From: Amoebophrya sp. A120
Lineage: Eukaryota; Protista; Dinoflagellata
Assembly: GCA_905178155.1 (NCBI GenBank)
Contig: CAJINV010000005.1
Location: forward strand, 3,757,697 to 3,821,696
Reading direction: 5' to 3'
Length of the DNA stretch: 64,000 nucleotides
The notes beneath the pieces are model-generated. The model was not told the DNA's origin and made no database searches. It saw nothing but the letters and a program-made list of their open reading frames with translations. The position numbers and the translations under genes were made by a program. This document shows, piece after piece, positions 3,864 through 41,000 of the stretch; position 1 is the first letter of the stretch; each line of letters opens with the position of its first letter.

Positions 3864-6800
3864 TCAAAACTCCGGCCAATCGTACCAAATACGTTTGGAC
3901 CCATCACCGTACTCCTCGCTGAACAAGTCCCAGCTTCCGCACGGCCACGCCAAAAATTTTGTCTTCTTCGCCGAGTTTACTTCCGCTTGTTCCCCCGCCA
4001 CGAAGTCCATCCGCTCCCCCGCATCCGCATCCAACAACGACAGGCAGCTATTCACGATGGCGGTGTTCCGGGCCTGTATTCAAAGGAAATTTCCTGCACG
4101 CGCACAACTTTGAACGCGTCTTCTGCATGACAGAGAGTTTCTTTAATTCTATTCAGCATGGCAAGCGATGCGCTCCAGGGGTGCTCTAGATTTGTCACGC
4201 ATTTTGCACGTGTGCAGGAAGTTTGTACTTATTGCATAACCTGGATCGGCAAGCCACACAAACTCGCCCCACATTCGGTTATCTCACAGACCCATAGCTC
4301 CGGCTCCTTCATCGTCTCCTTGTTCCAGACCACATGGTAATCAAACCGCCCGTTGCTGGGACAGTTCAACTCCGGCCACTCACTGTGGTACCAGGTGAGC
4401 CACTTCCGCGTCAATTCCTTCGCCTGCTCCTCCATCTTGGCTTGAAGGATTCCGTCACCACCCCAAATCGCTTCCAACGCCTGCTTCGGGGTCTGGTTGA
4501 TGTGTCCCGTCATATCCAACCCCGCGTTGTTCACGTTCGACTCGATCCCCATGTAGGCGACCTTCATGTCAAAATCCCCGTTTCGCGTCAGGTCCATTTC
4601 CTTTTGGACGTTGTAGAAGTTGTGTTCCGCACAGTTTGAGATTTCCGCCGCGTCGTAGCCTGAAAGCTTAAATAAATGCTCCATGTCGCGTATCTGGTCC
4701 CGCAACTCTTGGATCTGTGCGTCAATGGAATTTACTTGTTTTTTTTTGTAGATGTCAAATACTTACAAAAGTTAAAAAGCTCATTTTACTCTGCTACTTT
4801 TTCAGAATTCATTGTATACGGAGTTCGCGTTTTTCGGAGCTCCTGGGTATTCGTATTCATAAAGCAAATCACTAACGACCGCTGAGTCAAGGAAGACAGC
4901 AAATGTACGAAAACTATTGATCTTTACCTTTTTCTCTCCTGTCGAATAACTTTCCATAACCGTGCCATCATCTTCTGCTGGCACCATCACGACATCGTCC
5001 TTTCCGATGTTCACTGCAACAGCATCCCGAGTCAACAGCTTTTCGTTTTCCTTCTCCAACACATCCAACTTCCGCTTCACGTCCACCAACGGCTTCTCCA
5101 ACCTCTTCATCTCCCGCCGCTGCACAAAATCCGTCGGAACCACCGCGCGACTTTCCTTCGGCACCCCGAACGCGTGGATCCGCAGTTCCGCGATGCGGTC
5201 CGGCACCAACTCCTGCACGATCACCGACGTCGCAATCTGGCCCTTGTGGCAGCAGATCATGGATTCCAACTTTTTCGCCAAATCCTCCGCCCCGTGCCAC
5301 ACTTTGACGTCTACGCCCATCCAGGAAAAACCGAGTTTCACCACACCGGACATCATTTGGCTTTCTTCTTTGGTCGTTCCTTGGACAGCCTCGTCGTCAG
5401 GAGGAGGTAGGGGACTGTCGTGGGCTTGTTGGACGAGGATCTGCTCCCCTGCATCACCCGCGGCACCCGAGTTGGTCGAGGCGGGGGATTCATCACTGGT
5501 TGTACTGTCAGAGTTCAGAGTGACGACCGGCTCCAGCTGCTTCACTAGAGAAATACAACCCTTCTTGTAGCTCATCTTCTTCGCCTGATCTACTTCACCA
5601 ACCAGCGGAACACTCGGCACTATCGGTTCATTTCCCCAGACGTTCTTCCGGATCATTCGCAGTGCGTTGATGGCGTTTTTCGCGGCCTTCAGACTGTCCT
5701 TCTTGATACTGGTCGCGTACACCCGGGTGGTCGCCGGGGTTTTCAATTCCCGATTCTGGCACCCCGCGTTGTAGTACTGTTTCCCACACAGTTGCCGGTA
5801 CAAATGCGAGGGCGCCGGGTACCGGGTATGAATCTCCGTGTTCTCCATTTGCCGCATGAACTCGAAAAACACGGACTCCTTCACCATCCCAGCGTCACTT
5901 TTCGGGTGCCGGTTTTCCGGACCGAACTCCCGCTCCGCCGGCCACAAGTAGTACAGCCCGCACTTCGCCTTCCCGACGAGCAGATCAGCGAAGGGTCGAC
6001 GCTTGCTGCAGCTCTTGGTCGTAGTGGAAGATGGATCATGCTGGTCAAGAACATGCTCCTGCAGCTGCGCCAGCTGCTGCATCTTCACGACGCTTGTTTG
6101 ATGTAGTTGCTCCACCTTCTTCTTCTCCTCCGGCAAATGCAAAACGTGCTGTTGCACGAAACTCGTCAAACACTCTTCGTCGAAGCAGAACAGTTCGTAA
6201 CATTCAAAGCGATTCCCCACCGCCGCCTTCACCCCGGCCTGCTCGATCAACGAGTAAACCGGCCACTCCTGGGTGATTTTGTACTCGGACTTTCGCTTGT
6301 CAGACCAGTAATCGAACCAACGCAGGATGAACAGGCTGAGATCGATCTTGTTTTCCACAGGAGCCAGTTGTTGCTTCTCGTCAACACGGATTTTGTTTCC
6401 GTCTTTCTCGGCTTTCCCGTTCAGGAGTTGCTGGTGGTCGACATCAACCATCTCAACCTCGGTGGTCCCCGTTAATTCCACGGACTGCAACAGCTCGACA
6501 TTCACCTGAAGGAGTGGGGGATACTAATAGATGCTATACGCATCTTGGTTGACACACAACAGTCACTCACTGGCGTTTTTATTTGCCATCAAAAAGAAAA
6601 ACAAAAAGCATATTGCAATCATGTTGAACAAAAGTTCTTTGGTATAAGAGACTAAATTTGTGCAACACTATCTAGTACCTTATCGTACACCCGATACTGG
6701 AACTTTTCATCCACGTAGCCCGATCCCGCCTCCACGAAGCAATACTTTTCCGCCGGGACCACGACTAAACCCTTGACCACAGAGTCCGGAATCTCCGTGT

Positions 6801-7795
6801 TGCGCTCGTAGAGAAAGTCGACCACCTTGCCCTCAACCCAGCCGTGCGCGAGGCCCCAGATCGGACGCAGCATGTACTCGTGCTTGGTAGTAGTTTCCTG
6901 CTGGTCGACGGAAGTGGTTGCAGTGTCGGTGATATTAGCCTCGGCGGAAGCAGCTGTTTTCGGGTGCATACACATAGTATGAAACATGGTCATTTTGAAT
7001 TAATTTGATGAACATCAACGTGCCCGCGAACACGTGCGTGCTTTATCAAAAGAAGAATCAGAGTCAAAAAGCGTCCTACCATGATCATCTCTACTTAGAC
7101 TTACCCTGATTGTCCTTGCGCCGGATTTTCAACTCCGGCTGCTCGAGTTGTTCCGAATTACTATTCAAAGCGGCCGAAGGAGCTGCTCCGTCGTCACCGG
7201 CAGTTTTTGCAGTAGAAGTAGTCGTTTCCATCGCCACGACGGGGCGACCCCCGCCACCGTTATTTGTCGTGATGGACATCGAAATTTCGACTCCCGCGAC
7301 CTTCGCCGTCATGTTGGTGGTGGTAGAAGTTTGGTTCTGTTGTCCTCCCAGCAGGAGCTCTGGCGCTGCAACAAGCTGCACATTGGGAACGTTGTTCCCC
7401 CCGTTCGTGGTCACTGTGCCGGTCTGATCCACGGCACCAATACTCGGAACAACAACCACCGCAGGAGCTCCATCGCTACTAGCTGCAGTAGCCGACCCTC
7501 CAGCATCCTGCATCTTTTTTCCCGCTCCCTTGGTCTTCGCCTTCACCTCTCTGTGTTCAAACTGGTGGTACGCCCGGTCGGCGAGGACGTAGCGCCAGAC
7601 TTTGCTGTAGTGGCAGTCGTAAAAGAACGAGACTTTACTGCCGATTTGGTACTCGGAAAATTTGTCGTTGGTGACGTTCTTACCGACGGTTTCAGCATTG
7701 TCTTGCGCCAATTCTTGGATTGGTTGCTGATTCGGGACGGTCGCTGGCTGTGGGTCGGGGCCAACGCCGCCAATATTGTCCGTCACCGGCAGCAT
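3864..7795 (-). CDS. five-exon uncharacterised protein with an ATP-grasp-like C-terminal half
   Basis: ORF segments join in frame through GT-AG introns 6954-7104, 6506-6678, 4715-4927 and 4074-4240; motifs GVVKLGFSW, VIVQE, ELRIH, RFD...LWVCEITECGASL resemble the ATP-grasp motif order (fold is an inference). Confidence 0.65.
4077..4238. mobile_element. introner element (162 bp) forming GT-AG intron 4074-4240
   Basis: TAT...ATA ends; degenerate TIR (AAATTTCCTGCACGCGCA vs AAACTTCCTGCACACGTG); sense-strand direct repeats CAGGT/CAGGC; removal joins GLPIQ to ARNTAIV. Confidence 0.8.
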
Positions 7796-8871
7796 GTGAG
7801 GACGAGGAGCGTGTTGTGCCTTGCGGGGGCCTTCCGCTGGTGTGCGCCTCTTGTTGCAAGATTAGCGAAATATTTGGGTGTGTGTGCGTGTGAGCAGATT
7901 CTTCAAGAAGAGTCCAAGTTTGTTCTTCGCTTGATGTCTTTGTAGAGATATAAAAGTTCGAGTTGTGTCTCAAGACTTCTACGAGTAGAAAATCTGAGGC
8001 TTTTTCTCTGCGGTAGTTTCTCGTATTTCTATAACCCTTCTAATTTACTATGTTGTGTCAGATGAGCAGACGCATCACAGCTGTTGATTTGTTCGACGAG
8101 TTAATGTCTACGGGACCCTAAACCCTTGTCCGACACTTCTCATCTACATCATCGATTCGTAATCGTATCATTTCATTGATTGATTGTGAATGTCTGCATC
8201 ACCATTGGTATTTTTGGAATGGGGATCGCTTTCGTGGAGGCTGGTCAATGGAATGGGGATCGGTTTTGAGTGGGGGTGGAGTGTCAAGTACTCAGACTCT
8301 CGGTCTCATTTGCAGAGATTGCGTGACCCTTTACTTCTGACTGTGTTAGTGTTTCTCGCCCTTGTTGCAAAGCAGCTGTAACCAACGTTGACCATGACTT
8401 TTCTGATTCCGAATTTATTTTTTGCGTGAAGATGTCCCAGTGGCAACTGCGCACGCTGCTCATCTTCACTCTTGACAATTCTTTTTTTAAATCTTGCGAG
8501 AAAAAAAGTATCAGATTCAAAACCCCCCGCAAACAAATAATCATTATGACAGCCATTCTTCAGGTGCAAAAGCGTTCATCTTAATAGTAGCGGCACAGCT
8601 AAGGGCGAATTATCAACTACATCAAGTCGCTTCTTGAACAACTGACATGATTCCCTTGACACTTTGGGTCTTCGTTCACCAAACAGATCTCCAAAAATTC
8701 AACGCGCCGAAACAACCATGTAGTCAGTTTTCAATTTCGCGGGGACGGTTGCAGTACCGAGAACGACATCTATATCGCATCTTCCAGAAGCTTCCTCGTC
8801 TGTGTTTTGTTCTTCTCCTTTACTATAAAATCAATGCACCAGTGCAAGAAATATATCATGAGGTTATCTTA

Positions 8872-13989: not shown

Positions 13990-15467
13990 TCTGACAGACC
14001 TGACTGCAACGGAATCGAAAGTTTGTGATTTGAATGTTTTTCAACGAAAACCAAGGAATATGGAGTAGAAACCTGACCTGCTCTTTCTTCTATTCGGTTG
14101 CTGCAGCGAAAATGGCGGTAAAAAACCCTCGAACAGGTCCACGCTCATGTCAATGAGGAAAAGAAATCAATAAAAACGCCCCGACCGCTGCACCAAACCT
14201 CAAAAAAGCAATTTGGGGTATTTGCGAGTATCAAAATTCCTCGGTGCACCAGCACCAGAATATCTCTCAAAGAGAAACTCAATTTGCTTGTTTCCGCTCA
14301 ACAACGTACTTGTTGCGTGCCCAAATCTAGGATGCCCTCGTGTTGCGCCCTCACCAACAAGAGCAGCCGCTCTTTTTCGGCTCGAGGATAAATGATGAAA
14401 CCATCAGTCATGCAGGGCCGGAAAGAACTTCAGAATAGCTCTGCCGTATCAGCAGTGGCAGTGCGGGAATCTTTTTCCTCGAATGCAGCGACCTGTCAGA
14501 CTGGATAACTTTTATGTAAAAAGATAGAAGAAAACGATAACTACAAATCCGCTTCTACCCCCTTCCAAACAAAGGCATTGGGAAGCAAAGGATGAGCTGA
14601 AGCATATATAACAGGCAGAAGTTGTCTTCCACGTCTGTGAAAAAATTCTATGCTACATGATCATGCTTGGCACAGTCTGCAGTAGTTGCGAGCGACGTTG
14701 CACTGGCCGCAGACAAAGACATGCGCCGAAGTTATAGCAAAACCCATCCGCGCCAGAAGGTCACGGAAGCTGCTCGCCCTTTCGCTCCACGCTCAGCAAC
14801 AGATCTGCACGCCACTCATCAAGGTCCCCCGAGAAACGCGAAGCAAGCTGCCACATAAATTGTATAATTGAGAACGCGCCTCGATCGTTGTCGCTTCGTG
14901 CACGGGGGTGCACCAGATTGGAGGACACAGGTCCGCCGTAAAGTCGCTTTGATGGTTCTCTCTGGCAGTAATATGATCTTATTCCGAAAGTGGCATACGT
15001 TGGTGGTAGTTGCCTGCGTTCACAGGTTCATAAGGATGCTCTTTCACAGGAGCGAGGCAATGTCTGTGTGCGTACTTTGGTGCGCCCTCGACTTACATAT
15101 AATCATACAATCCGACCTACAGTCGTGCAATCCTTTGGCGTACCCAGAAAATACTTAATCACACAGTCCTACACTCTAACAGGTAAAGATTGATTTGAAA
15201 ACTAGCTCTGGCAGCAACTACGAGATCGACCACAATTCTAGCGAAAGCGTAACATCATCTCGAAAGATGATAGTAGATAAGCGACGATTTTCACAGAATT
15301 CGAAGGACAAAGATGAGCAGAAGCATTTCAAGCAGGCAGAACCAGAATTCTATAGCACTGCTGTGATGTCTGTCCTCTGGCAATAAATTCTACACCACGA
15401 AATCATTATCGATCGCAGCTGTGCAGTAGATTTTCTCACACACGCAGGAGCACGGCTACTGGGTTCT

Positions 15468-16799: not shown

Positions 16800-19700
16800 T
16801 CACACGTGGCCCAACTCCCCCTCGCTCTCGTCCGCCGGAAAGTCGTCTGTAACCGCCGGCAGCCACGTGATTGGGTGGTGCCCGATTCTTCCGAGCAACC
16901 CAAAGTTGCAGAACAACGCACGGACCCCGGCGGGAAGTTGATAATGGTGTTCCGTTTTTGGGCGTTTGTGGGCGGAGGAACCGCCGTCTTCCGAGACGTT
17001 TCGACCGCACGAGCCCCGTGGCGCGCCCACCTGCATCCCCAGTGCCATTGCCAGCGCACGCCACAGCAGCTGCTCCTGCTGCCCTGTAAGTTTCTGCGAA
17101 GGAAAAAGCGGTCCGCCTTCATCGAGTCGCAAAAATTCCGGGTCCGACATATGGCCTACTCAGCTGGAGAGACCATCGTCAAGTGGAACGATGTTGTAAA
17201 CCGGTCAGAATTACTCTACTAACTTCTTCTTCATACATATGAAACGGAAGAACGCAAATAAACCATATTGCTCCAACTTCTGCATCGAAAAATTGAACGA
17301 ACTTCAAAGCGGTGCTAAATATCATATTAGATATTGTACTGTTGAGCTGATGTGCAACTAAGACTATAGGCAGATGCAGATCATCGGCATTCTGCATCAC
17401 AAAACGTTCCATTTGAGATTGTTATCCAACCGAGCATGTGATACGCCAGCAGCTTCTCCTCTGTTTGCCAGCCCACCAAGTTCACTTGCCTGCTCAAGGC
17501 ATCGGTACTCGCACTGGTGTGCAAAGAATTCGCCTTCGTGAGGTCGAAGCCCGCACGTTCCGCGATCCTCTTCATGTCCTCACCCCACCTGAGGGACGAA
17601 CCCACGGCGCCCGCAGCGTGAAAGACTAGCGAGTTCTTGTTTGGGTACAGAGCTTGGAGCAGTTCGTTCAGAAACAACACCTCGTCATCCCAGCTCAGCA
17701 GCACCATCATGCTTTCCATGCACATTTGCGCCCGCTCGAGACTCTGCTCTGCTGGAAGCACCTCTACACCAGCGCCGTCGTTCTCGTTGGCACCATCATG
17801 CATGTACGGGTGGTAGCCCGCGCACTTCTCCGTGTAGGCGTTTCCCCACCCGCACGCACACAACGCCTGCGTGAGCGGTAGTTCATTGTAGTCCTTGGGA
17901 CTGTCTACGACGTGGCTCTCGTTCTTTTTCACGAAGAACTCCGGCACTTCAACTTCGTCGAGGCATTTCTGTCCCCACCGGAGAAACACGGCTCGGAATC
18001 CCTCCATGCCGCCCGCCAGGTGGTAGTAACCCCGGCCGCGGGCGTGCTGCGGGTAGCTCGTGCCTTCATCCAGGTGTCGAGCCTCACAGGGCGGCAAGGC
18101 TTCTTTTTGAAGATGCGAGTTGTCTTCACCAGAGTCTGCAATTGGCTCCGAAGATGTTGAAGAAGAAGTGGAACTAGAGGAACCCGAATTTTTTCCAGGA
18201 GGACCAGCTGCATTTTTCCCATTCCGGCCTGTGTGGACATGACAGACGCTGTCCTTGTCCGCGTTCGCCAGGAAGCTCGCGTAGACAACCGAAAGCGTGA
18301 CTTCTTCTTGTTTGAAATAAGCTACATCGTTGCTATGATGTTGCGACTGGGTCGGCGAGAAGAAGTTCACTTGCCTGTCCGCTTCCTCCGCTACCGGACC
18401 CCGGAGAAACGCGGTGGCGCTCGTTTCGGTGGCGCCGCACCGAATGTTGCTGCTCGACAAAGGGTGCAGCTCGATCAATGTTCGCACCGCGTCGTCGATA
18501 GATTCCGCGTGCCGCACAGAATGACAGGCGCGGGCACTGCCAGTAGCTGGCTTGTCGTTCTTGAGGCTGGAGGACTCCGCCGCCCACACCTGGTGCCAGT
18601 TGTCACACACCCGCAGCAGGTTCTGGAAGGGTGGGAAATCTTGCAGCGTTTGCTTTACAGTGCTTGAGGCGCCCCCTTCCTCGTCGTTGTAAACTGTGTC
18701 GTTCATAATTTGCGGTATCGCGAAGGCAATCTGCGCGCTCGCGCCGCCCATGGAAAACATGTTGTGTTCCTGAATGGCGATGGCCTCCAGCTTGGCTTCC
18801 TCCCATCCGTGCAAAACGCGCATGTGGTGCGACCGCTGCAGCGTCGGCCCACGGTTCCCGTACGTGTTCAACGAGAAAACGGCCTGCTCAAATCTTTTCA
18901 AAATTTCGTTCGGCTCGTCCGCTCGGAGGCGCGCGCCAGCGGTTGCGTAGCCGAAAACTTTCACTGGGAAAGCGCCCGTCTTCACGGATTCTTCGGAAAA
19001 GTTGGTGTCGTTGGCGACACGAATGCGACTTGCTAAGTCGAAAACGAGAGACTTGGCGGCGAGTTTGCAGGGGTTGGTCGTTTTTTGCTCTGATGTTTCT
19101 TGTTCATCATCTCCATCGTCGGTCGAAGATGACAGTTGTGTCGGCGCACGACCACACGCGACTAAAATGTCGTCGACTTCTGTCGCGCAGCCGGCGCCAG
19201 GAACAAATTCCAAGGTGTTTGGCTTAATGAAAGATGGTAACAGCTGCAGCACCGTCGTTCTCGTATAATTATCCCGCTCTTGTCCTACTTCTACTACTCC
19301 AATAGGATGATCCTCGCTAGTACTCCGGCGGCACCGCTGCAGCACCTTCGCTCGAGTCCCGGAGCTGCCGATGTCCAGTCCGATCCACAGTTGGAGCATC
19401 GGGCAATTGCCGGCGTCAACTGTGCAGGTTCTTGGGCGAGGATCGTGGTTTTGTTCTTCGGAAGTTGAATTTATTTTCCCATCACTGTAGTTATCATCGT
19501 CGGCGGTCGAGGTAGTTGTAGCTTGATGCGCCCCAACAGACGCGTCCTCCTGTTTCTGCGAAAAGGAAGCGAGAAACGTCGGCGCTGCAAAGTTTTTTTT
19601 GGGTAATTCCGAAACAACCGGCCGTCCTAAGCCGTCAAACCGTTCAACATATGTGGCGGAGGAGGTAGATGTTCCGGCTTGATGTTGTAGCTCTTGCTGC

Positions 19701-20997: not shown

Positions 20998-25347
<4,350 letters not shown>

Positions 25348-26949: not shown

Positions 26950-29900
26950 TTACACCTGATTGTCGGCGGAAGCTGCGGCTTCCGTTGCAGCTGCAAGTTG
27001 CGGCGGAGCAGCAGCGGCAGCAGCAGCGGGAGCAGCAGCAGCGGCAGCAGGAGCAGCTTCGCCTTCCGCCCTCGTAACCGGTTTCTTTGCAGCAGCCGCG
27101 CCACCTCCACCAGCGAAGGGGCCCGCCCCCATCACCTTCAGCACGATGACAACGATCAGAGCGAGGCCAGCGATACCGCCGAGAATGATCGCGATGAGCA
27201 CACCGGTGTCCATGTCGTCATCGCTGGAGGAGGACGAGGTCGTGGCGGTGGTCGAACCGGCGACGGGCGCGGCGCCGGTCGCCGTGGTGGTGGGCACGGT
27301 AACTGGATTATGAGCGTGCACAGCGTCCCCCTCCCCCTCATTTGTATGGCATGAACAGCAACACAAGCAACAGCAGAAAAGGGGCTTTCGCATGACAAAT
27401 CAAATCTGCAGGCGGCTTGTAGTAGTACTATTTGAGGTCCCAAAATTTGTCATGCCTAACAGTGCTTACGGGCAAGGTGTGAAAAATGTGGTATTTTGCA
27501 TTACAAATGAGGGGGAGGCTGTACAGTTGTGCAGTCTCATACGGATCCACCGTGGCCGTGAAGGTGACGCCGGACAGGGCCGCATCGTTGGACAGCGCGG
27601 TCTGCAGCGTCGTTTGCATGGTGGCGGAGGCGAACGTTCCCGCGGTCCCCGCAGCCGTCATTTGCCCCTGCGCCGTTGCGAGGTTCGTGGCACTGTTGGC
27701 GTCCGCGTACAAGTTGAATGAGCCGCTCGCCCCGGCCGAGCTGGTCGTCAACTGCCGACGCAGCTGCTTGCGAAGTTCGCGGCGGGCAGCGAGCGCGCCC
27801 GTGAAAGCCACGTCCATTTCTGCGTAGATGCCGTTCTGGACTTGTCCGCCGGTGCAGGAGGCCAGATCACTGAACGTCTTGCCCGTACCGGAGACCGGCC
27901 CGCACATAATGCTCAACAACGTGGAAGTGATCTTGTTTTTGGCCGCGGTCTTCTGGGCGGCCGTCAAACTGGCGACATCCATCGCGAAGCTCATCGTGAC
28001 CGGGGTGGAATGGCGAGTGTAGCTGGCCAAGGACGTGGCGCGGTCGTACCCCTTCATCAGGTAGGCGGCCCACGTCGTCGTACCGCAGGCCTTGGCCGTG
28101 TGCCAGTTGTTCAGCTTGCTGGCATCAGCCGGGCACTGCGTGTCGTAGGGCGTGTTGTAGCAGTCGGGCGCGGAGCGGCAGGTGTCGTACGAGTACTTCG
28201 CCGCCGTGGAGCCCGCGAACACGGAACTGGCGATCCCGGTGGGGCAGCTGGGGTCCACGTAGCACCAGGGGACCTGACACCAGTTGTAGTCCTTGCTGCA
28301 CCAGCCCAGGTGGGCGGCCACGTCGTTCTGGGAAGCGGGGCAGTAGCTGTACCAGGGGGTGTCGGGCATCTGGTCCCAGGCGGCGCACGTGGTGCCGTAG
28401 TACGAGATGAATTTCAAGTTCTGGTACTGGCCCGGGTTGGAGGCCGGGTAGCTGCCGGTGATGGTCGAGTTGATTTTGTCCCCGCCGAACAGGCACGCAC
28501 AGGACCCGGCCTTGTCGTACTTGTTCGACTTGGTCCCGGTGGGGTCGTTGGGGCAGAACCCCGTCGCAGTGGTGGACGAGATGCCCGGCACGCTCGTGTA
28601 TCCTGAGTAAAAACGTCCCCACACCATAGTCAAGTTGGGGAATCGGCTAGACAAATCCACAAGCTTTGGCTGTTTTACATGACAAATTTGGATTCGTAGT
28701 GTAGTGCTGTTTGAGCTAGCTCAGCAGCATCACAGATCTAGCATACCATGCCGATTGGAGCATGACATATTGCAAAACACGATTGGAAAATGCTTCTCAT
28801 GGGGCTCCGCATGAGAAACATTTTCAGCATGCAGATTTGCATTACAACTATGGGGTGGGGACGTTTTTGAATAGGATATCGTGTAGCAATTGTTTACGCC
28901 GCAGGGGTTATGGCAGGAAAATAAAACTGCTTCAGTGATGTGAGGACTTTGGTGAAAATTTGCATGATAGAGACGACTTAGCTGTTACTTCACACATGAA
29001 GACAAGGACATTGATTCGCAAGGCTCTGAGACTTCAAACACAGATTCCTCGTCCGCAATTTTTATGCAAGTTTCAACAAGCGAAGCAGGTTTATTTTCGG
29101 GCGATAGGACTGGTACGAGTAAAATGCGAGGGGGGATCCCTGGAAGACGCTGCTCTGGACCCCCCACGTGCACGACTCGTCGGCGTAACACCAGGGCGAC
29201 GTGCACCAGTTGTCCGTGGTTCCGAAGTTGGCTGGCGTCTGGCAGTAACTGACCCACGGCGTGTCGGGCACGCGATCCCACGCCGCACAAGAGCTCCCGT
29301 AGATGCCGACGGCCCCATATGCACTGCGAAATTCATTTGTATTGCCGCACAGGTACAACTACAACAGGCACCACGAGCACGACCACATGATAGAAGTAAA
29401 TGCATCATAACAACATCACCTAAGGACTACCTAACAGCCGCCGCCCACTACGCGACTTGTCAGGCGAAACACGCTGCGACAAGCATCACGATCATCATCA
29501 TTGGCTGTGTCATGCGGATGAAACAGCATGTCAATGGAAATATGTAGTACAACGCCTACGCGCGGTGCGGTATAATATCAATAAATTTCCTTGAGATACA
29601 CCCAGGTTCTTGTACTGTCCCGGGTTAGTAATCGGGTACATGTCCAAGAACGCAGTGGTGTGGTTGGTGCCCTGCGCCTTGCAAGAGCAGTCGGAGAACG
29701 TGCCCTTCAGTTTGCAAACATGCGGCGTGTAGAACTCGTTCTCCTTCGAATCGTATCAAATGCAAATATGTCTGGGTCTGGAAAGTTTGTAATGCTAGCT
29801 TTCCATGCCTAGGAAATCTGTACTGCATAACCAACAAAAGTCGCGCCCTCTTTTGTACAGGCAAAAACGCAGTTTCTCATGCGGACTGCCTATGAGAAAG

Positions 29901-32900
29901 CGTTCTGGAAAGTTGTCATGCTGGGCTGCATTCGAAAGTGTTTCCATCAACCACATTTTAGCATCACAAGTTTCCAGACCCAGACATATTTGCAACGCAT
30001 AAATCGTAGGGGCACTTGGCCGCGTTCGCCGTCTTCCCCGCGGTGGTGTAGCAGTCGGGCGCGGAGCGGCAGGTGTCGTAGGAATACGCCATGGCCGTGC
30101 CGCTGCTGGCAAAGACCGTGGTGGAGATCCCGGTGGAGCACTTCACGGGGTCCACGTAGCACCAGGGAATTTGGCAGTAGTTGTTCCCCGCGGTGCAGAA
30201 ATCGGTCTTCCCGTCGGCGGGGCAGTACTGCTTCCAGGGGGTCCCGTATCGAAGAAAAAAACGGCTTAAGTCTAACTTTTTTGCGGGAACAGCATCACAG
30301 ATTTGTTTTGCATGACAGAAAACCTGTCATGCGCAGCTACTACGCGAAAACATGCATTGAAATAGCCTCTGATGCATATCCGGCATGACAAGCGTGACTG
30401 TATTGCAACGTCTGCAAGACAAAGTTACACTTACACAGTTTTTTTCGTGCGTATCCCGCTCACGCTGTCCCAAGCCGCGCAGGACGTGCCGTAGACCTTG
30501 ATGCTGGTCATGTTGGCAGGCGTATCCAAGAAAAAAAGTGCGTCAGGTTTTACAAAGACATGCTTTATTTGCAGTGATGCAGCAACACAGGCTTGGTCTA
30601 CTGCTCCGTGACAAAAAAAATCTGCAAATAAGTGCCGGAGAGCGCTTTTTCATTCAGGCAAAAGACAATGCATAAAAACTAAAGCAGGTGAGCAATTTGC
30701 GGTTTACGCATGACAGAGCGTGTCTGTCTTGCCGGCCCTAGTACTGCAGCACACCAGTCTGCTCAGCGTAATGCAATTTCGAGCCCGACTACAACAACTT
30801 TTTTCCTTCCATAGTAGGCACTACCGGTGTACAAGGCCGACGGCAGTTCTCCACCGATGTATTTGCATTCGCAATCCCCGGTGCTAGTGCCGGCGTTCTT
30901 CTTGTCCATGCGGTTGGACTGCGTGCCGGTCGGATCGTTCGGGCAGGTACCGAACCCGTCGGTGAGGGTCGAGTTCGCGTAGCAGTCCTTGAACCCGCAC
31001 GTCTGGTACGAGTACTTGGCCGCGGGGGAACCGGTTCCGGCAAACACGGAAGACGCCACCCCCCAGGGGCAGGTATCGTCGACGTAGCACCAGTATCAAA
31101 TGCAAACATGTCTGGGTCTGGAAACTTGTCATGCTAAAATGGGGATGATGGAAAAACTTCCGCATGCAGCCCAGCATGACAACTTTCCAGACTGCTTTTT
31201 CATAGGAAGTCCGCATGAGAAACTACGTTTTTGCATGACAAAAGTGGCTGCGTCGTTTGTTGCTTATGCAACACAGATTTCTCAGTAATGTAAAGCTAGC
31301 ATTACAAGTTTCAACTTTCCAGACCCAGACATTTTTGCAATGCATAACCACGGGTCAAAGCACCAGGGGTTCGCGTCGAGGGGGTAGGAGCTCTTCCCTT
31401 GACAGGAGCCCGCGAACCAGGGGGTGCCGGCGGTGTTGTCCCACGCGTTGCAGCTGGTCCCGTACACCTTGATCGACGCAAGATCCTTGTACTGCCCCGG
31501 CTGGCTGGTGGGAAAGTTCGTGTAAACGCTGCTGGCCAGCTCCTCCCCGTTGTATTTGCAAGCGCAGTTCGTGTACGTGGAGCCGCACTTCATCGGAGTG
31601 GCCCAACCAGACACGAGGGTCTTCCCGGAGTTCGGAATCTGCTTCAGATATCAAATGTAAAAATGTCTGGGTCTGGAAGAATGCATGTTTGTCATGCTTG
31701 TCTGGCATGACTCTCAAATCTGTAGTCATGCACGTGACCCCAGAGCCCCATTCTTCTGTGATGCAGAAACGCAGTTTGTCATGCAGAATAGGCAACACCT
31801 AGGACCTCAGAAACTTGTCATGCTGAGCCAGCATTTGTAGCCTCATCATGAGACGCCACCCAGCATCACAAGTTTCCAGACCCAGACATTTTTACATTTC
31901 ATATCAGCGTCGTCGCGTAGTCGAACGGGCAGTCCTTGATCTTTTTTCCGTTCTGGTTGTAGCAGTTCGGCGTGTCTTTGCACGTATCCATCATCATCAT
32001 CATTTATCCTGCACTAGGGGGGGGCGTGCGGAGGTTTGGGCTCGAGTTCGTTCAAGCTGCATCTCGAGGGTTTCTCACTGCAGCGTCGCACCTCGCTTAT
32101 CGTCGCTTACTAACATCAAGAAGTCTGAGTATCGAACTGCTCAACTCTCTTGAACATCACTGAAGTCGTTCTCTTCTTCTTCTTCGAGGATCGGATCGCA
32201 TTTCAGATCGAGCTTCTTCGTCGCGACGCACTTCTTCTCGTGCGTCTTCATGCGTCGGGACGCGCCGACCTTCTTCTGGAAATCGCGTGGCCAAGAAATC
32301 GAGTGCTCCGAGCAGTGCGGACAAGTCAGCTGTCGGACGCTGAACTTCGAAACGTCGCCACCGCTAAGAAACCGCTGCGGAGGAAGAACAAAACGCTGCG
32401 AAGGCTTGTATTTGTTCAGAATACACTGGCCCGATTTCCCGTACGCGTATTCCTCGGCCGGTGTGTAAGACCCGTCACGCTCACCGACGATGCGGACGAA
32501 GTCGTCCTCTTGATGCAGCTTGAGGTGGGCACGCAGGGCCCGCAAAGATCCGCCAAGCGCCGCCGCGCACTTGTTGCACCACAAAGCGCCAGCCCCGTCC
32601 TTGCAACCAGTATAAATCCCGCCCGATTTCCGCGCAAGGTCGTCCGTTTGCCGCTCCGAAATTTCTCCCTTCAGCACTGTCTGTTTCGCTCGTAACTCCG
32701 CCAAGCTCGGAGTGACTTTGAGGACCGCCCGCTTACTGCCGACGCGGCCCCGATCCCCATACGCCGAATCAAACTCCTCGCGCGAAATTCCGTTTTTCTT
32801 CAAAAGTCGCTCGTACGCATCTAGAACGCGTGCCTGCGATAGCGCGTCACGCCAGGACGCGAAAAACCAATGCTGCATCGTGGCATCGATATACCACGAC

Positions 32901-35134
32901 CTCGTGCGCAGGAACCAGTCCCTGCGAGTTTCCGGAACAGCAAACCCGGCGAGCTCCCGGACCGGAATCCGGGCGGCCGCGCACGCCTCGATGAAGGACT
33001 CGTAGACCGACGGTAGTCGCGATGGGCGTCGTGGCAGGAGGAACATTTCGGGGCTGCAATCCGGGGTCGTGTTGGGGTCCGCGGCGCTGATGATAAAACG
33101 GCCAAAAAACGCCTTGCGCGGCAGGTAGTCCCGGTCGCGCCGCAACAAATGCCCGCCGTGTGACAGCCTGGCATAGCCTATCTCCGCGGAGATCGGCGCA
33201 ACGCCGATGTGTTCCCGGAGGTCGCCATGCGAAACTTTCATGACCTCCATCTGGGGGAGGGACAGATTGAACAAACGCCGAAGGATTGCGTTGTCGGCGG
33301 CTGTCAGGTCACTGAGCTCCTGCGCCGAAAAAGACCGGCAATTCGCTCCATACAACATCGTACCGCGGACCAAAGCAACCACCACCGCGCGCCTGTGCCA
33401 TTTATTCAATTCCCCGAATCCGACCAACGCTGTTAGTGTTCAATTCCCCGAATTCCAAGAAAAAAACGCTGTTAGTGTCAATTTGTGATGCGCAACATGC
33501 AAAGTGATTGCGTCTGTCATGCTTGGCATGCATCGTGGGGTCCATTAAAGGGCGTTTTCACGTACTATCTGCGCATGACAGGTTTTTGCTGTCATGCCAG
33601 ACAAACTTGTAATGCTATTCCGCCAAAATAAAAGTTACACCTACAATGTTTTTTTCTTGGATAGCACGTGTTGTACGAATAGTACACGTCGGTGCTGAAA
33701 TCAGACTGCACTGCACTCGGGCAGCTGCTGTCGACGTAACACCACGGAGTCTGATTTGTTTGTATTTATTGACAGTGTGTTTTTATTATATCGCGCAGCT
33801 ACTGCTATTTGATGTTTAACAACATTTACATACTTGCATACACGATTTCGATTTGACATCCAAACCCCGACGTGACAGGCAACAACAATCCAACAACAAG
33901 AAGATTTAGTCGTTACAACAACGCAAGAACCAGATCATCACTAGATAGAACTAGAAACAGTATGAGTTATTCTGCTTATGCTATACCTGACACCAGCTGT
34001 TGTCGGAATGACAGAAATCCTTGCCAGAAGTAGGGCACGAGCCGATGTACGGGGTTCCTGAAGTTGTTTTCATATTTTTTCGCAAAAAAAAAACTTTCTT
34101 CTTTTCTGCCGTGCTGCTGCTCACAGCAACGGCTACATGATCTTGATCGCAGGCAGATCGCACTACTAACTTTTCGCAGCGTTGTCCTTCTTTTTCAGAC
34201 TTTCTCATCAGGTCTTTTACTCAGGACGATATTTCAAGTACTTACTAGAGAGACCACGCTGGTGGACCACAACAAGAAGAGCGGAATGGGTGGTCGTGGA
34301 CGAGAGTAAAAACAAGTATACCGGCCACGAAATCCCAGGCGGCACACGTGGTTCCGTACATCAGGTTCGAGGTGGTGTTCACCCGGCTCGCCATGGTTGG
34401 GAACGTCTCCAGAGTAGAGGTGGTGCTGTTGTAGTAGGCCCCGCCGAGGCAGGCACAAGAGCCCGCCTTGTCGACCTTGCCGCTGCCCGTGCCGGTGATG
34501 TCCACCGGACAGCCCGCGGACATCGGGCTGTTCGCCGCCGCCCAGCAGTTCAAGGTGCCGCACGTCTCGTACGAATAGTATTCCCCCGAGCCGGAAAACG
34601 CGGACGAAGCGATCGCGGAGTCGCAGGAGGGGTCCACAAAGCACCACGGCTGCGCCACCCAGTTCTCCGACCCCGTGAAGTTCGTCGCGTTCGCATCGTA
34701 GTACGGGGTATCGGGCAAGCTGTCCCACGCTGCGCACGCAGTACCTGATCATGATGTGAAGAGCTGCAGATCAATGTCTGATTTAGTTGTCTAGGGTAAG
34801 CAGCAGATGCTGGAGTGAGTACGTACAACCGATCGGAACTATGGTCCTCGGGGCATGCTGGTAAAATCAATGAAATTGTAAAAAAAAAATGGCCTCAAAT
34901 TAATATAGAGAATGGACGGAAGCATTCTCAAGCCGCTCCATTTCGTTGGAAACAATTACCGTAGAGCGAGATCGCCGCGGAGGAGTTGTGCTGTCCCGGG
35001 TTCGTGGTGGGGAAGTTGTTGTACGTGGTTGCCGGCAAGGTGCCTCCCGCGTACTTGCACTTGCACGCTTGCTTGATCCCGTACGCGCCGGCGGCGAAGC
35101 CCGCCCCGAGGACGAGGCGGAGCTTGTTCTTCAT
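26950..35134 (-). CDS. type I membrane surface protein with six Cys-rich kringle-like repeats, 14 exons
   Basis: signal peptide MKNKLRLVLGAGFAAGAYG; six repeats of YGTxCxAWD..GTPW...WC..PWCYVD..C...YSY.TC; Thr/Ser stalk; TM helix GVLIAIILGGIAGLALIVVIVL; Ala-rich tail; GT-AG introns 34745-34959, 34058-34321, 33751-33986 plus ten introners, all junctions in frame. Confidence 0.88.
27309..27541. mobile_element. introner (TIR TATGAG...CTCCCCCTCATTTGTA)
   Basis: imperfect TIR of about 40 bp; flanks TGGAT/CGGAT; removal gives TATVDP-VTVPTTT. Confidence 0.88.
28599..28878. mobile_element. introner, family A
   Basis: TATCCTGAGTAAAAACGTCCCCACACCATAG ... CTATGGGGTGGGGACGTTTTTGAATAGGATA; perfect TCGTG flanks; removal gives NNCYT-SVPG. 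Confidence 0.92.
28909..29106. mobile_element. introner (TIR TATGGCAGGAAAATAAAACTGCTTC)
   Basis: right end reverse-complements to TATCGCCCGAAAATAAACCTGCTTC; degenerate flanks GGGGT/GGACT; removing the element plus 5 nt gives YSYQS-CG, matching the repeat consensus. Confidence 0.82.
29318..29598. mobile_element. degenerate introner
   Basis: TAT/ATA ends; weak TIR (GAAATT.ATT..TATT..CCGCAC); flanks CCCCA/CACCC; removal gives QYKNLG-AVGIYG. Confidence 0.75.
29754..30001. mobile_element. introner, family B (TIR ...TGCAAATATGTCTGGGTCTGGAAA)
   Basis: 24-bp perfect TIR core; perfect AATCG flanks; removal gives KCPYD-SKENE. Confidence 0.93.
30247..30453. mobile_element. introner, family C (TIR TATCGAAGAAAAAAA...TAACTTT)
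   Basis: imperfect TIR of about 33 bp; perfect TCCCG flanks; removal gives WDSVSG-TPW. Confidence 0.9.
30523..30813. mobile_element. introner, family C-like, degenerate
   Basis: TATCCAAGAAAAAAAGT vs TATGGAAGGAAAAAAGT; flanks poorly matched, but removing the element plus 5 nt gives SAY-ANMTSIKVYG, aligning with YKDLASIKVYG in a sister repeat. Confidence 0.75.
31094..31346. mobile_element. introner, family B (opposite orientation to 29754-30001)
   Basis: TIR core ATGTCTGGGTCTGGAAA; flanks ACCAG/ACCAC; removal gives FDPW-CYVDD. Confidence 0.92.
31649..31903. mobile_element. introner, family B
   Basis: TATCAAATGTAAAAATGTCTGGGTCTGGAA with a near-perfect inverted copy; flanks TCAGA/TCAGC; removal gives YATTL-KQIPNSG. 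Confidence 0.92.
31985..33663. mobile_element. introner, family C, interrupted by a LINE insertion
   Basis: perfect GCACG flanks (31980-31984, 33664-33668); right TIR is the reverse complement of TATCCAAGAAAAAAAC; left TIR split into TATCCA (31985) and TCCAAGAAAAAAAC (33454); removal gives YSYNTC-KDTPNCY. Confidence 0.88.
31991..33453 (-). mobile_element. 5'-truncated non-LTR retrotransposon, RTE-like
   Basis: ORF 32141-33427 matches the post-RT region of RTE-clade ORF2 (MLYGANC...ILRRLF...RLSHGGHLLR...LPRK); CxxC...HxxxH and CxxC...HxxxC fingers; (ATG)n tail at 31989-32003; TCCA on both sides; RT core absent. Confidence 0.85.
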
Positions 35135-36099
35135 TTCGATTCCCATGTCAAAGACGGATCCGCTTGACGCCGTGCGGTCTTTTGCTTTGATGTTGGTCCG
35201 TTTTTATTTATTTGCGCCTGGTGTGTTTCTTTAACACTTGGACTTGGTATAACTGTATTAGAAGCGATCTGGTTATTTTTGACCAGCTTCTTGTGTCTTT
35301 TTAGTTTTAGATTTGGGTTAAGGTTGTGAGTTAGTATTTGCTTTTGCGCGTAGTTCTAGTACTCCTAGCCGTTCTTGACAAGACTGTACGTCCTTTTTTG
35401 CTTCTTGTGAGGGTAGTGAGTCGCGAAGACTACAAACGCGATATTAAAGTGGAGTGCTTGGGCGTCGTGGAGTAAACCCGGTAGGGTTGCTCATTGACAC
35501 TGTCGGGACGATGGAAAGCCTCACAATAACAGTATTAATTTATGCTACAGGGGGTGTAAGGCTTACGCTACGAGGCACACATCGCGTTGCACATAACGAG
35601 CACATGGCTAAGGACCGAGCGGTGTAAGTTTTTCACGACACCGAGCCGGCCACACCTCGTGATGGTGATGTTGACCGACGTGCTTCACGTATGTCTAAGA
35701 ATCTCACACCGACGCATCTATACTTCGTTCCTGATTTACATCTAATTGCGTACCAGCCGCGGGGCGCACGATGCTACGCGACTTTTTGTGATTTACTTTG
35801 TAGTTTCCATTTTCTACGACCGACGTTGACGGAGGGACCGACGTGGCTTCTTCGGCACGCACCGATTTCGCATTTCGATAACTACGAGAAGTTACTACCA
35901 TTTACCGAGCAGCTACTTTGAGTTACACTTACGGAGGCCGGCGAAGATTCGGTGCAAGCATTTTGATATGCTGGCACTTTTCGAACAGCTACAGTTACAG
36001 AAGTAGACTCTACAAAAATATGAAAAACAAGGCATGGAGGCGCGAGCAAAACAACCACTGCAACATAATCACGAGTACCACCGGAACAGGGAAAACGCT

Positions 36100-37660
36100 C
36101 AGGCGAGACACCACGCCCGGCTGGGCCGGGGGCAGTTCTGGCTTTAATGGGCAGCCAGGCCGCGGCCCCCGGGATGGGCCACCAATATCTCTCGACACAC
36201 CTCCCTGGGCCAGGGGGCTACCCCAAATGCAATATTACAAGCTGGCGCCATCACCACAGCAGAGCGAGGGCGCGGGGGAAAGCAAGGTGGCCGGCGCCTC
36301 CGCCTAGTCGCGCCGCCCAGAAAGCAACACGGGCAACACAGCGGGCGCCAACCCCTCCCCGGGCGCAGGCGCTTCCTGGTCCTAGCCGAACACCGGCGGC
36401 CCGGGAACGAAGGCTGGGCGGGGAAAAAAACCATCGCGCCCGCGCCCTCCGCCGGCCCCCCGCCGAGCCCCGCGCGCGCCCGCCGGCGGCCGGGCTTCCA
36501 CAGAGGGGGCGCCCGCTCGCGAATTTGACCAGCCTGCCGGGCCTACTGGCCCCTGCTGTCGGATGGCCGCAGCAGCACGGCCGCGCAGACCGTCTTGCGC
36601 ACCCTCACGCACGCCGCATAAAAGCTGCTGACCTCGCCGACAAATAACAGTGCTTGCTGGCAGCTGAGATTCAGCGTCGTGCTGCGTATTTGGGCGATGT
36701 CCCCGACCAGTTGGAAGCTGGAGCTTTTTTTCATTTTCTCGATTCCTTGCCATGAAGCACGAACACTACTCGAGTCACGCGTTGCGCCGTTCGAAGCAGT
36801 CAGCTGCGCCCGCTCCATAACCAGTCGGAAGAGCTTATGCACTAGCAGAACGGTCCACGTCCCTTTCCTCCATAAAGCTGGGGCGGCGCGCACCCTTTTT
36901 CTGCCGGCTTCGTTCCTTCGCTAGCTCCTGCGCTTGGGCTCTGTTCTACCTCGTAGCCAGCTGCTTCCTCTGCTCGCCCCGCAACCGGCTGCTCCGCCTC
37001 CCCGGCCCCCCTTTGATGGCGTCGCTACCCCCCTCCGAGGCGCCGGGCGAAGCTTCCAAGTGCGCCAAGCCGGGCTGCCGGCAGCGCCCGCGAGTAGGGC
37101 GCCCCGCTGCGTTGCCTGGGGCTGGCGACGGCGGCCCGGCCCGGCCGCAGGAGCACGCTGGTAAGGCGCGCCGCGCTTTCAAGGCGCCACACCCCCGGCG
37201 CCGCCCTTCGTGCGCCGTCTGTCTGCGGCGGCGGATGGAGCAGGCAGGGCCCCGCGCGACCGAGGGCGCTGCGCAATTGCCTCACCCACTTGCTGGCCGG
37301 CGGCGCGGTTACTGGCTGCCTGCGTGTGCAGCGCGTTATGTCGCTCGCTGCCGTGGCCCCCGGTGCTTCGCGCGCGTCACCCAATGCCCGCCCGCGGCCA
37401 GGCGCTTTTCTCAAAATTGCGGCGCCGGCTCGTTTTTTTTTTTTCCTTATACGGGTGGCCCCACTCTTCCGCTGTCGCCGCCAACTGGGCGGCCAGCGCC
37501 CGCGTCCCCTGCTCGGCCCACTCCACCGCCATGCAGTGAAAACGTGCCCCCCCCCCACCGCTACGCGCCCGCCCCCGGCTTGCCGGCGAGCTCGCAGGGG
37601 CCACCCGCCCGGGGCCGGAGAGGGGCCCGCCGGCCACAAAGACAACAGGGCGCGGGAACT
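36100..37660. other. GC-rich intergenic island, possibly a decayed repeat or transposon
   Basis: abrupt shift to very GC-rich sequence with Arg/Pro/Ala/Gly ORFs in all frames and no recognisable protein. Confidence 0.45.
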
Positions 37661-38036
37661 GCAAGAAGCGCGAACGCTCTCGCACTATCATTCAACGTTG
37701 CAAGAGCATAATCGTCGCGACATCGAAAACACCAGCCGTCTTCGAAATCTGTCTGATGATCGCACGTCGCTGCCGCGAGCATGAAATCAAGTTGCTGCTG
37801 TTCGCTACCGCCTGAACAACAACCAACTGCTGGCTTTCCTGCGCCGTCCGTCAAATTTTCAAGCGTTGCCGTGTTCTACGACTTTTATTTTCGGGTAGGA
37901 CAGCTGGACGCTCACGCTTCGGTGGTTCACGAAACGCAGACGCATTTCATTTGGAAAAAGAAGTTTTGCAAGCACTAGTAACAAGAAATCAAGGGAAAAC
38001 TCACGATGTAGCAGCAACCTGAAATCTGTCACCAGA

Positions 38037-41000
38037 TCACTCAACACCCCCTCCAGCACCAACTCGAATCTCACACTTCCTCACCACCTCCTTTCCAAAC
38101 ACATCCGCAAGTCTCCGTGGCCCGTCACTCGGCTCGTCGCTGCCGTTGAAGTCCAGACTTATCAAACTCAGGTCTGCATCGGCGTTTCGGAGGAAGTAAA
38201 TCCGTTTTTCGGGAGCATCAAGTTCCACCAAAGCTCTCTCCTGACCAGTCCGCACGCGATCCGTTTCCTGTTCTTCCCCTGTTCTTCCAACCAGCAGCAC
38301 ACTCTCCTCCAACAACAACCCCGCTTGAAACACTTGTCGCAAGTACTGCACGACTTTGCTGCTTTCCGCGGCCGCGCTGGAGAGGTACTCCTGCAAATCC
38401 GCGCTGGTGATGCTTGAATTTGTCTTCTCCTCCCCTTCCGCGCCCGAGACGACGCTTTTGGGCGTACTGGCCCCACCAGCGGATGAAGTCCTCGCGGTCT
38501 TCACTTTGTTCTTCGAAGCCGCTATCTCTTTCAAAATCCCCTGCAAAAACGGCGCGCGTTCGGCGGTGGACGTTGAGGAGCGCTGTGTAGTACTAGCACC
38601 ACAATCCACTTCGGTAGAAAACACCACTAGCATCTCCTGCAAGAACGACAAATCGTCCATGGTTTCCGGGTCCCGCCCGAGCCACCACATGCTGTAATCC
38701 TCGTTCCAATAGATTAAGTTGTCTTCCGACCGATACACCGGCTTCTCCGCCCACATCTCGTTCTCCTCCTGTCGGTAAACGGCGTTGAAGCACGGGAAAT
38801 TGCGGATCTCCACAGCACTTTGCAACAATGCCGTAGTACCAGAAGACGACGACTTCGGGTGGCTCTGCAGTTCGAATTCCTCCTCGATCCTCAAGGATGG
38901 ATTTCTCATGCTGCTGATCGCGTTCGACACTGCAGTTGCGCCACTGTTCACCGCCCCGTGCAACAGTTCATTTGTCGTCGCGGAGCTTGTACTGTCTCGA
39001 TTGGCAGCAGCTCCTTCCGTGAGTAAACCTAAAGACACACTCTGCACACCATTCGGGATCGTTCGGTCAAGGTCGTTGGAGCCGATCCTGTTGGTGCTAC
39101 TGGTCGAGGATGAACCGCTCTTGTCTACAACTTCACCGTTCCTGTACTGCTCCGCAGGCCGGTGAATCAAAGGCGGCTTGGTCGAAGCGGATGATCTTAC
39201 TCTGTTCATCGCAGCACTTTCTTTCGAGTAAGCCGGATGCGTTGAGGAGTCGAAGGCTGTGGAAGAGGCTATCAACTGCAAACATGTCTCGGTCTGGGAG
39301 ATTCCGAAATTTGTCATGCTGTTTTTCCAAGATCCACCAAATCTAGAAAGCAGTGCCTAGCATCACAGGTTCTGCAGCCCCCTTGCGATGCCTATTCTGC
39401 ATGAGAAATGGCGTCTCAGCATGGCCACAAATGGACAGCTTTTGCAAGTCATGCAACACAGTTTTTTGTATGATTCGCAACATGCATCACAAGTTCATCA
39501 CATCCTTCCAGACCCAGACATATTTGCATTTGATAGCGGCGGAGATCGTGCGATGTTGGGAAGTAGTGCCTGAGCTGATCGTGCGAGCACCGCCGGAACC
39601 TTGTATTTGGTCATCCTCGCCGCCGGACCTCAATCGGTAAAACGGGTCCGGATCGGCGTAGTAAATCTCGTCCGGGCTGTTCCGCTTCGCTGGTAACGCC
39701 GGGTTGAGCAGCTTACTGCCCGACGGACTCTCTAGCAGGCGTTGCGTTTCTTTCACCTCGAGTCGCTTTATTGATACTGAGGGTCTGGTGGAGGAGGTGT
39801 TTGGCGATGCATTTCTCGCTTTGGCTTTATTCCCGCCGGATGCGCTAGAGGAAGTAGCGGCATTCGCATTTCGCGACGAAGATGAAACTTTGCTAACATA
39901 GTTCATCGACGAACTACCACCATCGTTCGACGTTTTCTTCACGGCCACACTCGATCGCGCGTTGCGGATTCCCCTACTGGACGCACTCTGACTACCCCCC
40001 GGAAGATAAGGGCCACCGCCGCGGCCGCTTTGACTCCCGCTGCTTTCCGGCGAACTTAAAAGCTGCGGTAAGGGGGAAACGGGCGGGGAGGCCAGTTGCA
40101 CGAAAGAGGTCGAGTTCGTTTTCCGAAGTAGTAACTTTTCATCGTCAAACTCCCGCCCTGCGTACGCCGGCTCTTGCAACTCCTCTCTCGATTTTTTCTT
40201 CTGGAACTGCATCAACTTCGCCACTCCGTGCCGGCTGTGATTCCGGTTACTATTTTGGTTGCTCTGATGTGAAGTTGACCCTTTTGACCCGGCGTCGCTG
40301 GTGAATGTCGAGCTTCCTGGCACCGGGCGCCCGACGTGGTCAAATTCCAACTCTTCGGGATCATCCCGGGCGGAGAAGGAGTTGATGCTCGAAATCGGCG
40401 ACGCTTTGTTCATGTCCGAGAACCGAAAACCGCCGGAAGAGTTATTTAGTAACCCGCTTGTATTTTTCGCGAATAGAAACTCCGTGTCCGGGTTACTATT
40501 GTTCATCACACCGCCGGAAAAAGACTTCAAGTGGTACTCCTCATCCGCAACAGAGGTTGACTGCGGCGTGGCGAGAAGTTTGGTGTTGCCAAACGGAATG
40601 TAGGTCGAGCTGTCCTTGCTGGTCTTCGGCAAACCTGGTTTCAAAGAGGCGGAGGCTGAGGCTGATCTGGTCGAAGACTCGGCCGGCGGCGAGGGATCGG
40701 GAACAACTCTTTTTTGGCGTAGTTTTTGGTGATCCTGGTTCAGTAAATTCGCTGCCTCTGTTGCGGAATGTGGTCGTGCTGGCGCGTCGTGGTCTAAAGA
40801 TATGCAACTCCCGAGGAGCTCCTCTTCCAGCGAGTCTTCCTCTTCCAGGTAGTCGGCGTGGAAATAGGCGTTGTGATTCTGATGTGCACTGGATGGCCGT
40901 CCCGAAGCGGCGGGCGGTAGATCCTGATAGCATTTTTTTTCTCATAGTCATATCATATCGCATGATAAAAGACAGTGGGTATGTTGCAAGTGCTTCGTTT

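Follow-up and report, generated by a model that had tools for sequence, protein, structure and literature searches.

How a cell can precisely remove tens of thousands of inserted elements whose borders do not follow the GT-AG rule is a question of mechanism raised by a 64,000-nt stretch of the Amoebophrya sp. A120 genome (contig CAJINV010000005.1, positions 3,757,697–3,821,696 of the forward strand), hereafter referred to as the window. Genes on its minus strand carry 14 insertions (E1 to E13 and E5b), which begin and end with TA, possess terminal inverted repeats (TIRs), and are flanked by direct repeats of 5 bp; the source paper for this class of elements, in the portions available, leaves their border undefined. 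We propose that the elements are likely cut at one fixed register, with the cell measuring from a hairpin instead of reading GT-AG.

The host is identified as A120 by an exon of the cGMP-dependent protein kinase (PKG) gene that is 99% identical to the A120 protein (next best, A25, 64%) and by a second gene that is 100% identical. The window elements are members of the published A120 introner elements, so that their class and anatomy are already known. Farhat et al. (2021; PMC7789003) describe more than 60% of A120 introns as non-canonical and the introners as being ~240 nt long, with inverted repeats that start with TAT and contain an A-run, direct repeats of 3–5 nt at a variable or undefined border, and RNA-supported non-canonical ends. 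The statement of the first-pass annotation that introners with inverted and direct repeats and non-canonical borders are known in Amoebophrya is thus borne out. The window elements agree with this description in organism, size, TAT inverted repeats, direct repeats, and RNA-supported non-canonical ends, while an element split by a long interspersed nuclear element (LINE) and a shared internal motif are seen here and are absent from the sections of that paper examined. For A120 family 38, Gozashti et al. (2025; PMC12130899) give a 5-bp target-site duplication (TSD), TA/TA termini, and homology to Copia/Gypsy elements, whereas the window elements are non-coding and 160–370 nt long; Dataset S2 of that paper, in 38 of 58 A120 rows, contains mixed TSD lengths and mixed splice-site origins and not a single register. 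No fixed register or LINE-split introner was found in the literature searched, the scope of which excluded figures and subscription papers.

The DNA retains these elements and the RNA lacks them. In a DNA-type run (X1), bins free of elements, intergenic ones among them, have a flat depth of 41–49, and the ends of eight elements are spanned for at least 31 letters by contigs of depth 40–45, i.e., at single-copy depth; therefore, most DNA molecules carry the elements. The summed depth over the elements themselves reaches 10^4–10^5, which indicates many further copies elsewhere. The RNA-type runs comprise one sample (X3–X5) and a second sample (X7) of the same study, and may be the data of the published A120 work; their RNA status is a guess by run type, supported by skipped GT-AG introns and by a poly-T loose end in X5. 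Of 17 joints, 15 are listed, among which four are canonical and 11 fall at elements; all 11 element joints skip the element plus 5 nt, and none allows GT-AG. Joints of E2, E4, E5, E7, and E8 occur in X7, and those of all but E2 in X3–X5; E1 lies outside the stretches compared with RNA. A raw-read run (X9) provided 10 reads on 18.8 kb, and the junction calls rest on contigs. A contig retaining E5b (29284–29628) has a depth of 5, compared with 110 for the skipped form, and E5b also has the weakest predicted end pairing. RNA editing that would create GT-AG was rejected, since the RNA-contig comparison displayed no base differences.

Removal of the element plus 5 nt restores the reading frame, as had been claimed for these genes. 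The PKG gene (20998–25347, minus strand), which hosts E2 in addition to canonical GT-AG introns with RNA joints, then yields the PKG of annotated protein P0001 across subdomains VIII–IX, and a second gene (26950–35146, minus strand), the predicted product of which is a membrane protein with cysteine-rich repeats and which hosts ten elements and the LINE, yields one frame of 1164–1168 aa once all inserts are removed. Retained inserts, the use of nearby GT-AG sites, and untranscribed pseudogenes, any of which the first-pass annotation had regarded as fatal to its reading, did not occur, with the one exception of E11, part of which stays in the RNA.

Mismatches between the two repeat copies had been suggested as a means of fixing the cut, and the pairs named for this purpose (ATCCG/ATCCA, GTGGT/CTGGT, and AGTCC/ACCCC) match E3, E9, and E5, respectively. 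With their use, the joined sequences leave one register that is common to all informative junctions. At E3 (27309–27541; joint 27304>27543), the RNA retains the fifth base of the downstream copy, which places the cut at or before repeat position 4 (range 0–4) and the intron at 27305–27542. The cut falls after position 3 or later (3–6) at E5 (28909–29106; joint 28902>29106 in both samples) and after position 4 or 5 at E5b (29318–29598; joint 29312>29599). E8 (30523–30813), whose joint 30518>30815 is unambiguous in both samples, admits position 4 only and thus an intron at 30519–30814 with CT-CC ends. E9 (31094–31346; joint 31088>31347) and E10 (31649–31903; joint 31643>31904) both allow positions 1–5, and the split E11 allows 3–4. 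E12 (39270–39535) allows 4, 5, or 6, its joint being inferred from contig pieces that end at 39263 (X3 and X4) on the assumption that the element and 5 nt are skipped. The intersection is position 4, and it is unchanged when E8, E11, and E12 are left out. In this shared register, the intron consists of 1 nt, the TA...TA element, and 4 nt, and its ends read, for example, TT-GT, AT-CG, CT-CC, or GT-GG. If cuts are modeled as independent and uniform, the chance of a common register is 0.012 for the eight informative junctions and 0.021 for the seven direct joints.

A GT at register 1 of E5, at register 2 of E5b, and at register 0 of E9 is left unused, as is a GT-AG pair of the same length that lies four bases outside the repeat of E2; therefore, a rule by which the cell seeks GT fails. 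Together with the CT-CC ends of E8, this upholds the earlier proposal that removal reads element ends or structure and not splice dinucleotides. The implied independence of the ends from sequence is not complete, since in the shared register intron position +2 is always T and +3 is always A, like most canonical donors in the window. All nine top A120 motifs in Table S4 of PMC7789003 start with xT, and the splice-site counts in PMC12130899 likewise fit an N-T start; neither is counted in favor of the register, given that an aligner has to pick one of several equivalent positions and that similar motifs would result from the mirror register.

E11 (31985–33663, family C, minus strand) represents a natural mutant in which the terminal TA and the repeat of the 3′ side prove dispensable. 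A 1.46-kb insert sits five bases inside its 3′ end and displaces the terminal TA and the repeat by the same 1.46 kb. The insert (approximately 31990–33451, minus strand) is assigned as a 5′-truncated LINE, a non-LTR retrotransposon, because its 432-aa frame (32141–33439) is 53% identical to residues 927–1340, in the C-terminal part, of P0121, a reverse-transcriptase protein of A120 that carries RVT_1. It possesses a short triplet-repeat tail and is kept in the transcript: RNA contigs skip only 33448–33664 (joint 33447>33665, depth 60–67) and then read through the LINE. E11 has perfect outer repeats, but the RNA contigs do not remove it as a whole. Full-length excision was not among the 15 joints listed; any such joint would be one of the other two, which, judging from the ordering of the table, rank below a row of depth ~6. 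The cut lies 4 nt past the place at which TA is expected and where AT stands, and the flank matches the upstream repeat in only one of five positions; this is compatible with the same distance being kept from the remaining stem. E11 is 79% identical to E7 over 110 nt. The product of the abundant LINE-bearing transcript is predicted to stop at ~266 aa instead of ~1164. At its 5′ junction, the LINE repeats short pieces of both itself and its target.

The 13 TA...TA insertions with TIRs previously reported in four genes are all real, lie in minus-strand genes between 4077 and 39535, and leave out a 14th, E13 (17150–17443), in a fifth gene; since that report was available here without coordinates, the pairing of its 13 insertions with these 13 is inferred. 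A filter for TIRs and repeats returned 11 hits in the window (ten true elements and one false pair at 28350–28600) and 0–1 hit in each of 30 local shuffles, two in total, which indicates that the elements are not chance occurrences. The three TIR families and four singletons described earlier were recovered. Family A comprises E6 (29754–30001; 253 nt skipped, joint 29748>30002), E9, E10, and E12; family B comprises E2 (21419–21789; 376 nt skipped, joint 21413>21790 in X7) and E4 (28599–28878; 285 nt skipped, joint 28593>28879), which are 81% identical over 248 nt; and family C comprises E7 (30247–30453; 212 nt skipped, joint 30241>30454) and E11, an end of which is shared by E8. The singletons are E1 (4077–4238; predicted intron 4073–4239), E3, E5, and E5b. 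As a correction to the uniform layout given earlier, an exact 5-bp repeat is present in five elements (E2, E4, E6, E7, and, as outer repeats, E11), while the copies agree at four of five positions in five (E1, with its mismatch at position 5, E3, E9, E10, and E12), at three in two (E5 and E5b), and at one in E8; 12 of the 13 therefore have a repeat of 3/5 or better. Similarly, 12 of 13 offer no GT-AG option inside the repeat, E1 being the sole exception. E13 has a 4/5 repeat and a predicted GT-TC intron at 17146–17444.

Traits of MITEs (miniature inverted-repeat transposable elements) can be seen, i.e., TIRs, a TSD of fixed length, no coding capacity, and many copies; a MITE-like origin is supported by the TIRs, the 5-bp duplication, targets that show neither a preference nor an enrichment of GT or AG, and a summed depth that is very high in run X1. 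By eye, a profile of TAT, seven looser bases, and at least three A fits at least one arm in 12 of the 14 elements, the exceptions being E3 and E13. An internal motif of 6–7 nt (GCATGAC, GCATCAC, and their complements) recurs up to seven times per element across unrelated families and is absent only in E5; 3.2 kb of element sequence (E5b not being counted as an element) contains 33 copies of the hexamer GCATGA or its complement, where the remainder of the window would lead one to expect 1.7. This shared motif is a candidate transposase-binding site. The same motif is found at 40925–41050, 54840–54900, and 55389–55514, stretches of non-coding DNA and of a probable canonical intron that lack clear TA ends and are possibly decayed elements.

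A larger sample was obtained by searching a related metagenome assembly with the TIR pattern, which retrieved 145 loci (554 kb) that share element families with the window (up to 94% identity) and none of its host genes; the set is biased toward the query family. A search that ignored the duplication called 412 elements, and a comparison of shuffled DNA with the same real loci gave 1 versus 166. Among the 390 elements with the internal motif, the duplication is exactly 5 bp in 286, 4 bp in 2, and 6 bp in 1, and 374 and 372 of the respective arms start with TAT. Orientation by coding potential was testable for 365 and confident for 224, of which 11 were dropped (repeat below 3/5). The remaining 213 oriented elements show the same TAT/A-run profile, occur in both orientations, and display no target consensus; neither G at +1 nor a 3′-terminal AG is in excess. 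A GT-AG option exists in 11 of them, which, with its absence from the 11 RNA joints, argues against canonical U2 introns. There is near symmetry between the sequences of the two arms. Of the changes to the terminal TAT, those that hit the TA make up 1 of 9 in the 5′ arm and 7 of 10 in the 3′ arm (well-oriented rows; p = 0.02, Fisher test).

From these observations, the elements, which are non-coding inverted repeats with 5-base duplications, are most likely DNA transposons; in the pre-mRNA, pairing would join their ends, and the cut likely follows a fixed register and is probably made by a modified spliceosome. A transposase, probably integrase-like, would make a cut staggered by 5 bp and insert the element either way round and without target preference, as the observed anatomy suggests. 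In the transcript, the TIRs are predicted to pair and thereby would bring the ends together; pairing of position +i with −(i+3) is predicted in 12 of the 14 elements. The 5′ cut would generate an intron starting with N-U-A-U, resembling canonical GUA(U) donors with G+1 relaxed, and four of the five RNA-supported canonical donors start with GTA, while several others, without RNA support, have GTAT. The 3′ cut may be set by its distance from the stem, and the observed junctions form without AG, without the terminal TA, and without a repeat that matches. One base plus four would equal the five duplicated bases, so that the exon is exactly restored; coding insertions would therefore be nearly free, which would explain the spread of the elements. 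According to PMC7789003, A120 has U2, U4, U5, U6, and nearly all spliceosomal proteins, with U1 undetected. We favor a U1-less spliceosome that takes N-UA(U) as its donor and the acceptor by distance from the stem. Pairing of intron ends has also been described for the non-canonical introns of diplonemids (PMC12621601). A required branch adenosine at −7 was not upheld, this position being changed in 3–4 elements of the related set.

Several observations weigh against such a strict register. Without E8 and E11, the chance of a common register is 0.23, which is unremarkable; the informative junctions are confined to two genes, and the RNA derives from two samples of one study, in contigs that drop minor forms and so record majority junctions only. 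E5b (z 0.0) and E1 have little predicted pairing in register, E8 folds no better than shuffles (z −0.7), and the asymmetry between the arms was noticed post hoc and gives p = 0.095 when weakly oriented rows are kept. Furthermore, of the mismatches between repeat copies, 30 of 48 in the related assembly affect codon position 3 (8.1% versus 2.0% and 3.3%), as do 7 of 9 in the window (hand count, with E8 and E11 excluded). The pooled 37 of 57 is above the proportion of 0.47 that we roughly expect if an intronic copy drifts freely (p = 0.004), which counts against the strict register because the latter does not predict it. Minor registers hidden by contig collapse, or conversion from element-free alleles, could explain this excess. 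The polarity of the mismatches, i.e., which copy mutates, gave no signal by AT bias or codon fit.

The third-position excess is what would be expected if the direct repeat guided a cut that wanders within it, both copies then appearing to be under coding constraint, and position 4 were the majority product only; contigs would hide the minor registers, and PMC7789003 describes the sites as variable. This explanation seems unlikely to us, since E8 and the split E11, with 1/5 repeats, give precise junctions at the same register, and gene conversion with element-free alleles could also produce the excess. Junctions at 1/5 repeats likewise tell against template switching of reverse transcriptase across a hairpin between direct repeats, with the real mRNA keeping the insert. 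Although a hairpin with a short repeat is the setting for this artifact, reverse transcriptase can make non-canonical junctions in vitro (PMC2923612), and all RNA evidence here is presumably cDNA, the skipped form dominates at E5b, and the conserved kinase domain of PKG is interrupted unless E2 is removed; we consider template switching highly improbable.

The elements resemble the TA-bounded internal eliminated sequences (IESs) of ciliates. Their removal from DNA, for which TA at both ends and the related (alveolate) lineage may be invoked, is nevertheless the least credible of the alternatives, as contigs cross element ends at the depth of element-free DNA (the majority form, beside which a minor joined form is possible) and no TA is left after excision. 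The rival that deserves the most attention retains the fixed register and assigns the cut to a separate, spliceosome-independent machine (an endonuclease with a ligase, or one of euglenid type) that recognizes the stem and its single-stranded arms. It would account for the dispensability of AG and G+1, for arms that are almost symmetric in sequence and used in both orientations, and for a geometry that parallels Euglena introns, in which a 3-nt donor and a 5–6-nt acceptor spacer surround the paired motif (PMC12501133) and which leave as circles (PMC11282704). Conversely, canonical donors in these genes agree with U+2 and A+3, the TA of the 5′ arm is weakly protected, and tunicates process non-canonical ends with a modified spliceosome (PMC13326754). 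A separate machine is therefore regarded as a minority possibility, and the pairing of ends with cutting in a fixed register by a modified spliceosome is retained.

A close likeness is to the nonconventional introns of Euglena (5′-N3CDG-/-CH′GN5-6|R; PMC12501133), where paired ends and fixed spacers decide the cut, as is proposed here, and where the tolerated N3/N6 form equals the offset seen here. Euglena differs in lineage and motif, in its N3/N5 optimum, and in a purine preference after the intron; in A120, by contrast, the transposon end provides the T at +2 and the A at +3. The Euglena-type CDG at +4 to +6 paired with CH′G is not found here, since +4 is T or C followed by C/G, with no CAG/CTG consensus. 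The MITE-derived introns of Fritillaria borealis (PMC11282704; PMC13326754) similarly combine TIRs and TSDs with non-GT-AG ends; their removal is reported to involve a modified spliceosome with preferred AG-AC and AG-AT ends and U1 kept, whereas A120 has no end preference beyond N-T and its U1 is undetected. A stronger statement, to which we give an even chance, is that splicing in A120 also follows a second code, which works purely as a ruler: the cuts would fall 1 nt ahead of a paired TAT...ATA stem and 4 nt beyond it, to match the 5-bp stagger that one transposase system produces, and every insertion, whichever way round, would thereby form a perfect intron. The machinery, lacking U1, would have arrived by convergence at the stem-and-spacer geometry seen in Euglena introns.

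Beside the known class, the single register and the LINE-split element are the points for which the literature searched yielded no published account, and they make the mechanism directly testable. A single register, if true, predicts the site of lariat or circle junctions, the minigene changes that would shift the cut, and a re-annotation of A120 intron borders; it would also explain how a transposon that duplicates 5 bp can saturate coding DNA at almost no cost.

With regard to the origin of the elements, no transposase was found in A120 according to the available text of PMC7789003. An autonomous copy with matching TIRs and a transposase was not found in the window or in the 554 kb of related loci, where long TA...TA pairs are mostly chance pairs of separate elements, and 87 of 126 long open reading frames together with 40 short frames from six longer elements contained no transposase or integrase family. 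The TIR pattern had no hits in viral contigs, and an Rfam search of the window returned none. The termini here, TAT, led us to reject Ginger DNA transposons. The Ginger end is TGT. The A120 element of PMC12130899 is, according to that paper, likewise without Ginger termini and TSDs. A Tc1/mariner or ciliate IES target was rejected as well, given that both TAs leave with the intron and the duplication is the outer 5 bp. In the related loci, a 972-nt element with perfect TIRs and a 5-bp duplication lies in an RPB1 gene (L052, 5001–5972); it contains a nested A-tailed insert between direct repeats of ~18 nt and no coding frame.

Among the host genes, the one exon tested of the cysteine-rich gene matched no Pfam family, and a protein-atlas search with its exon gave no usable match. 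The fifth gene, which hosts E13, matches GDA1/CD39 weakly. Its annotated protein, P0122, is joined over E13 and keeps a residue of the upstream repeat copy, while no E13 joint is among the RNA joints listed. Elsewhere in the window, intergenic stretches at 36000–37700 and 45000–46700 have 59–70% GC, compared with 41–55% around them, the first being without RNA-type cover, and a tandem array of 7/14/21-nt units at 63798–64000 runs off the window end.

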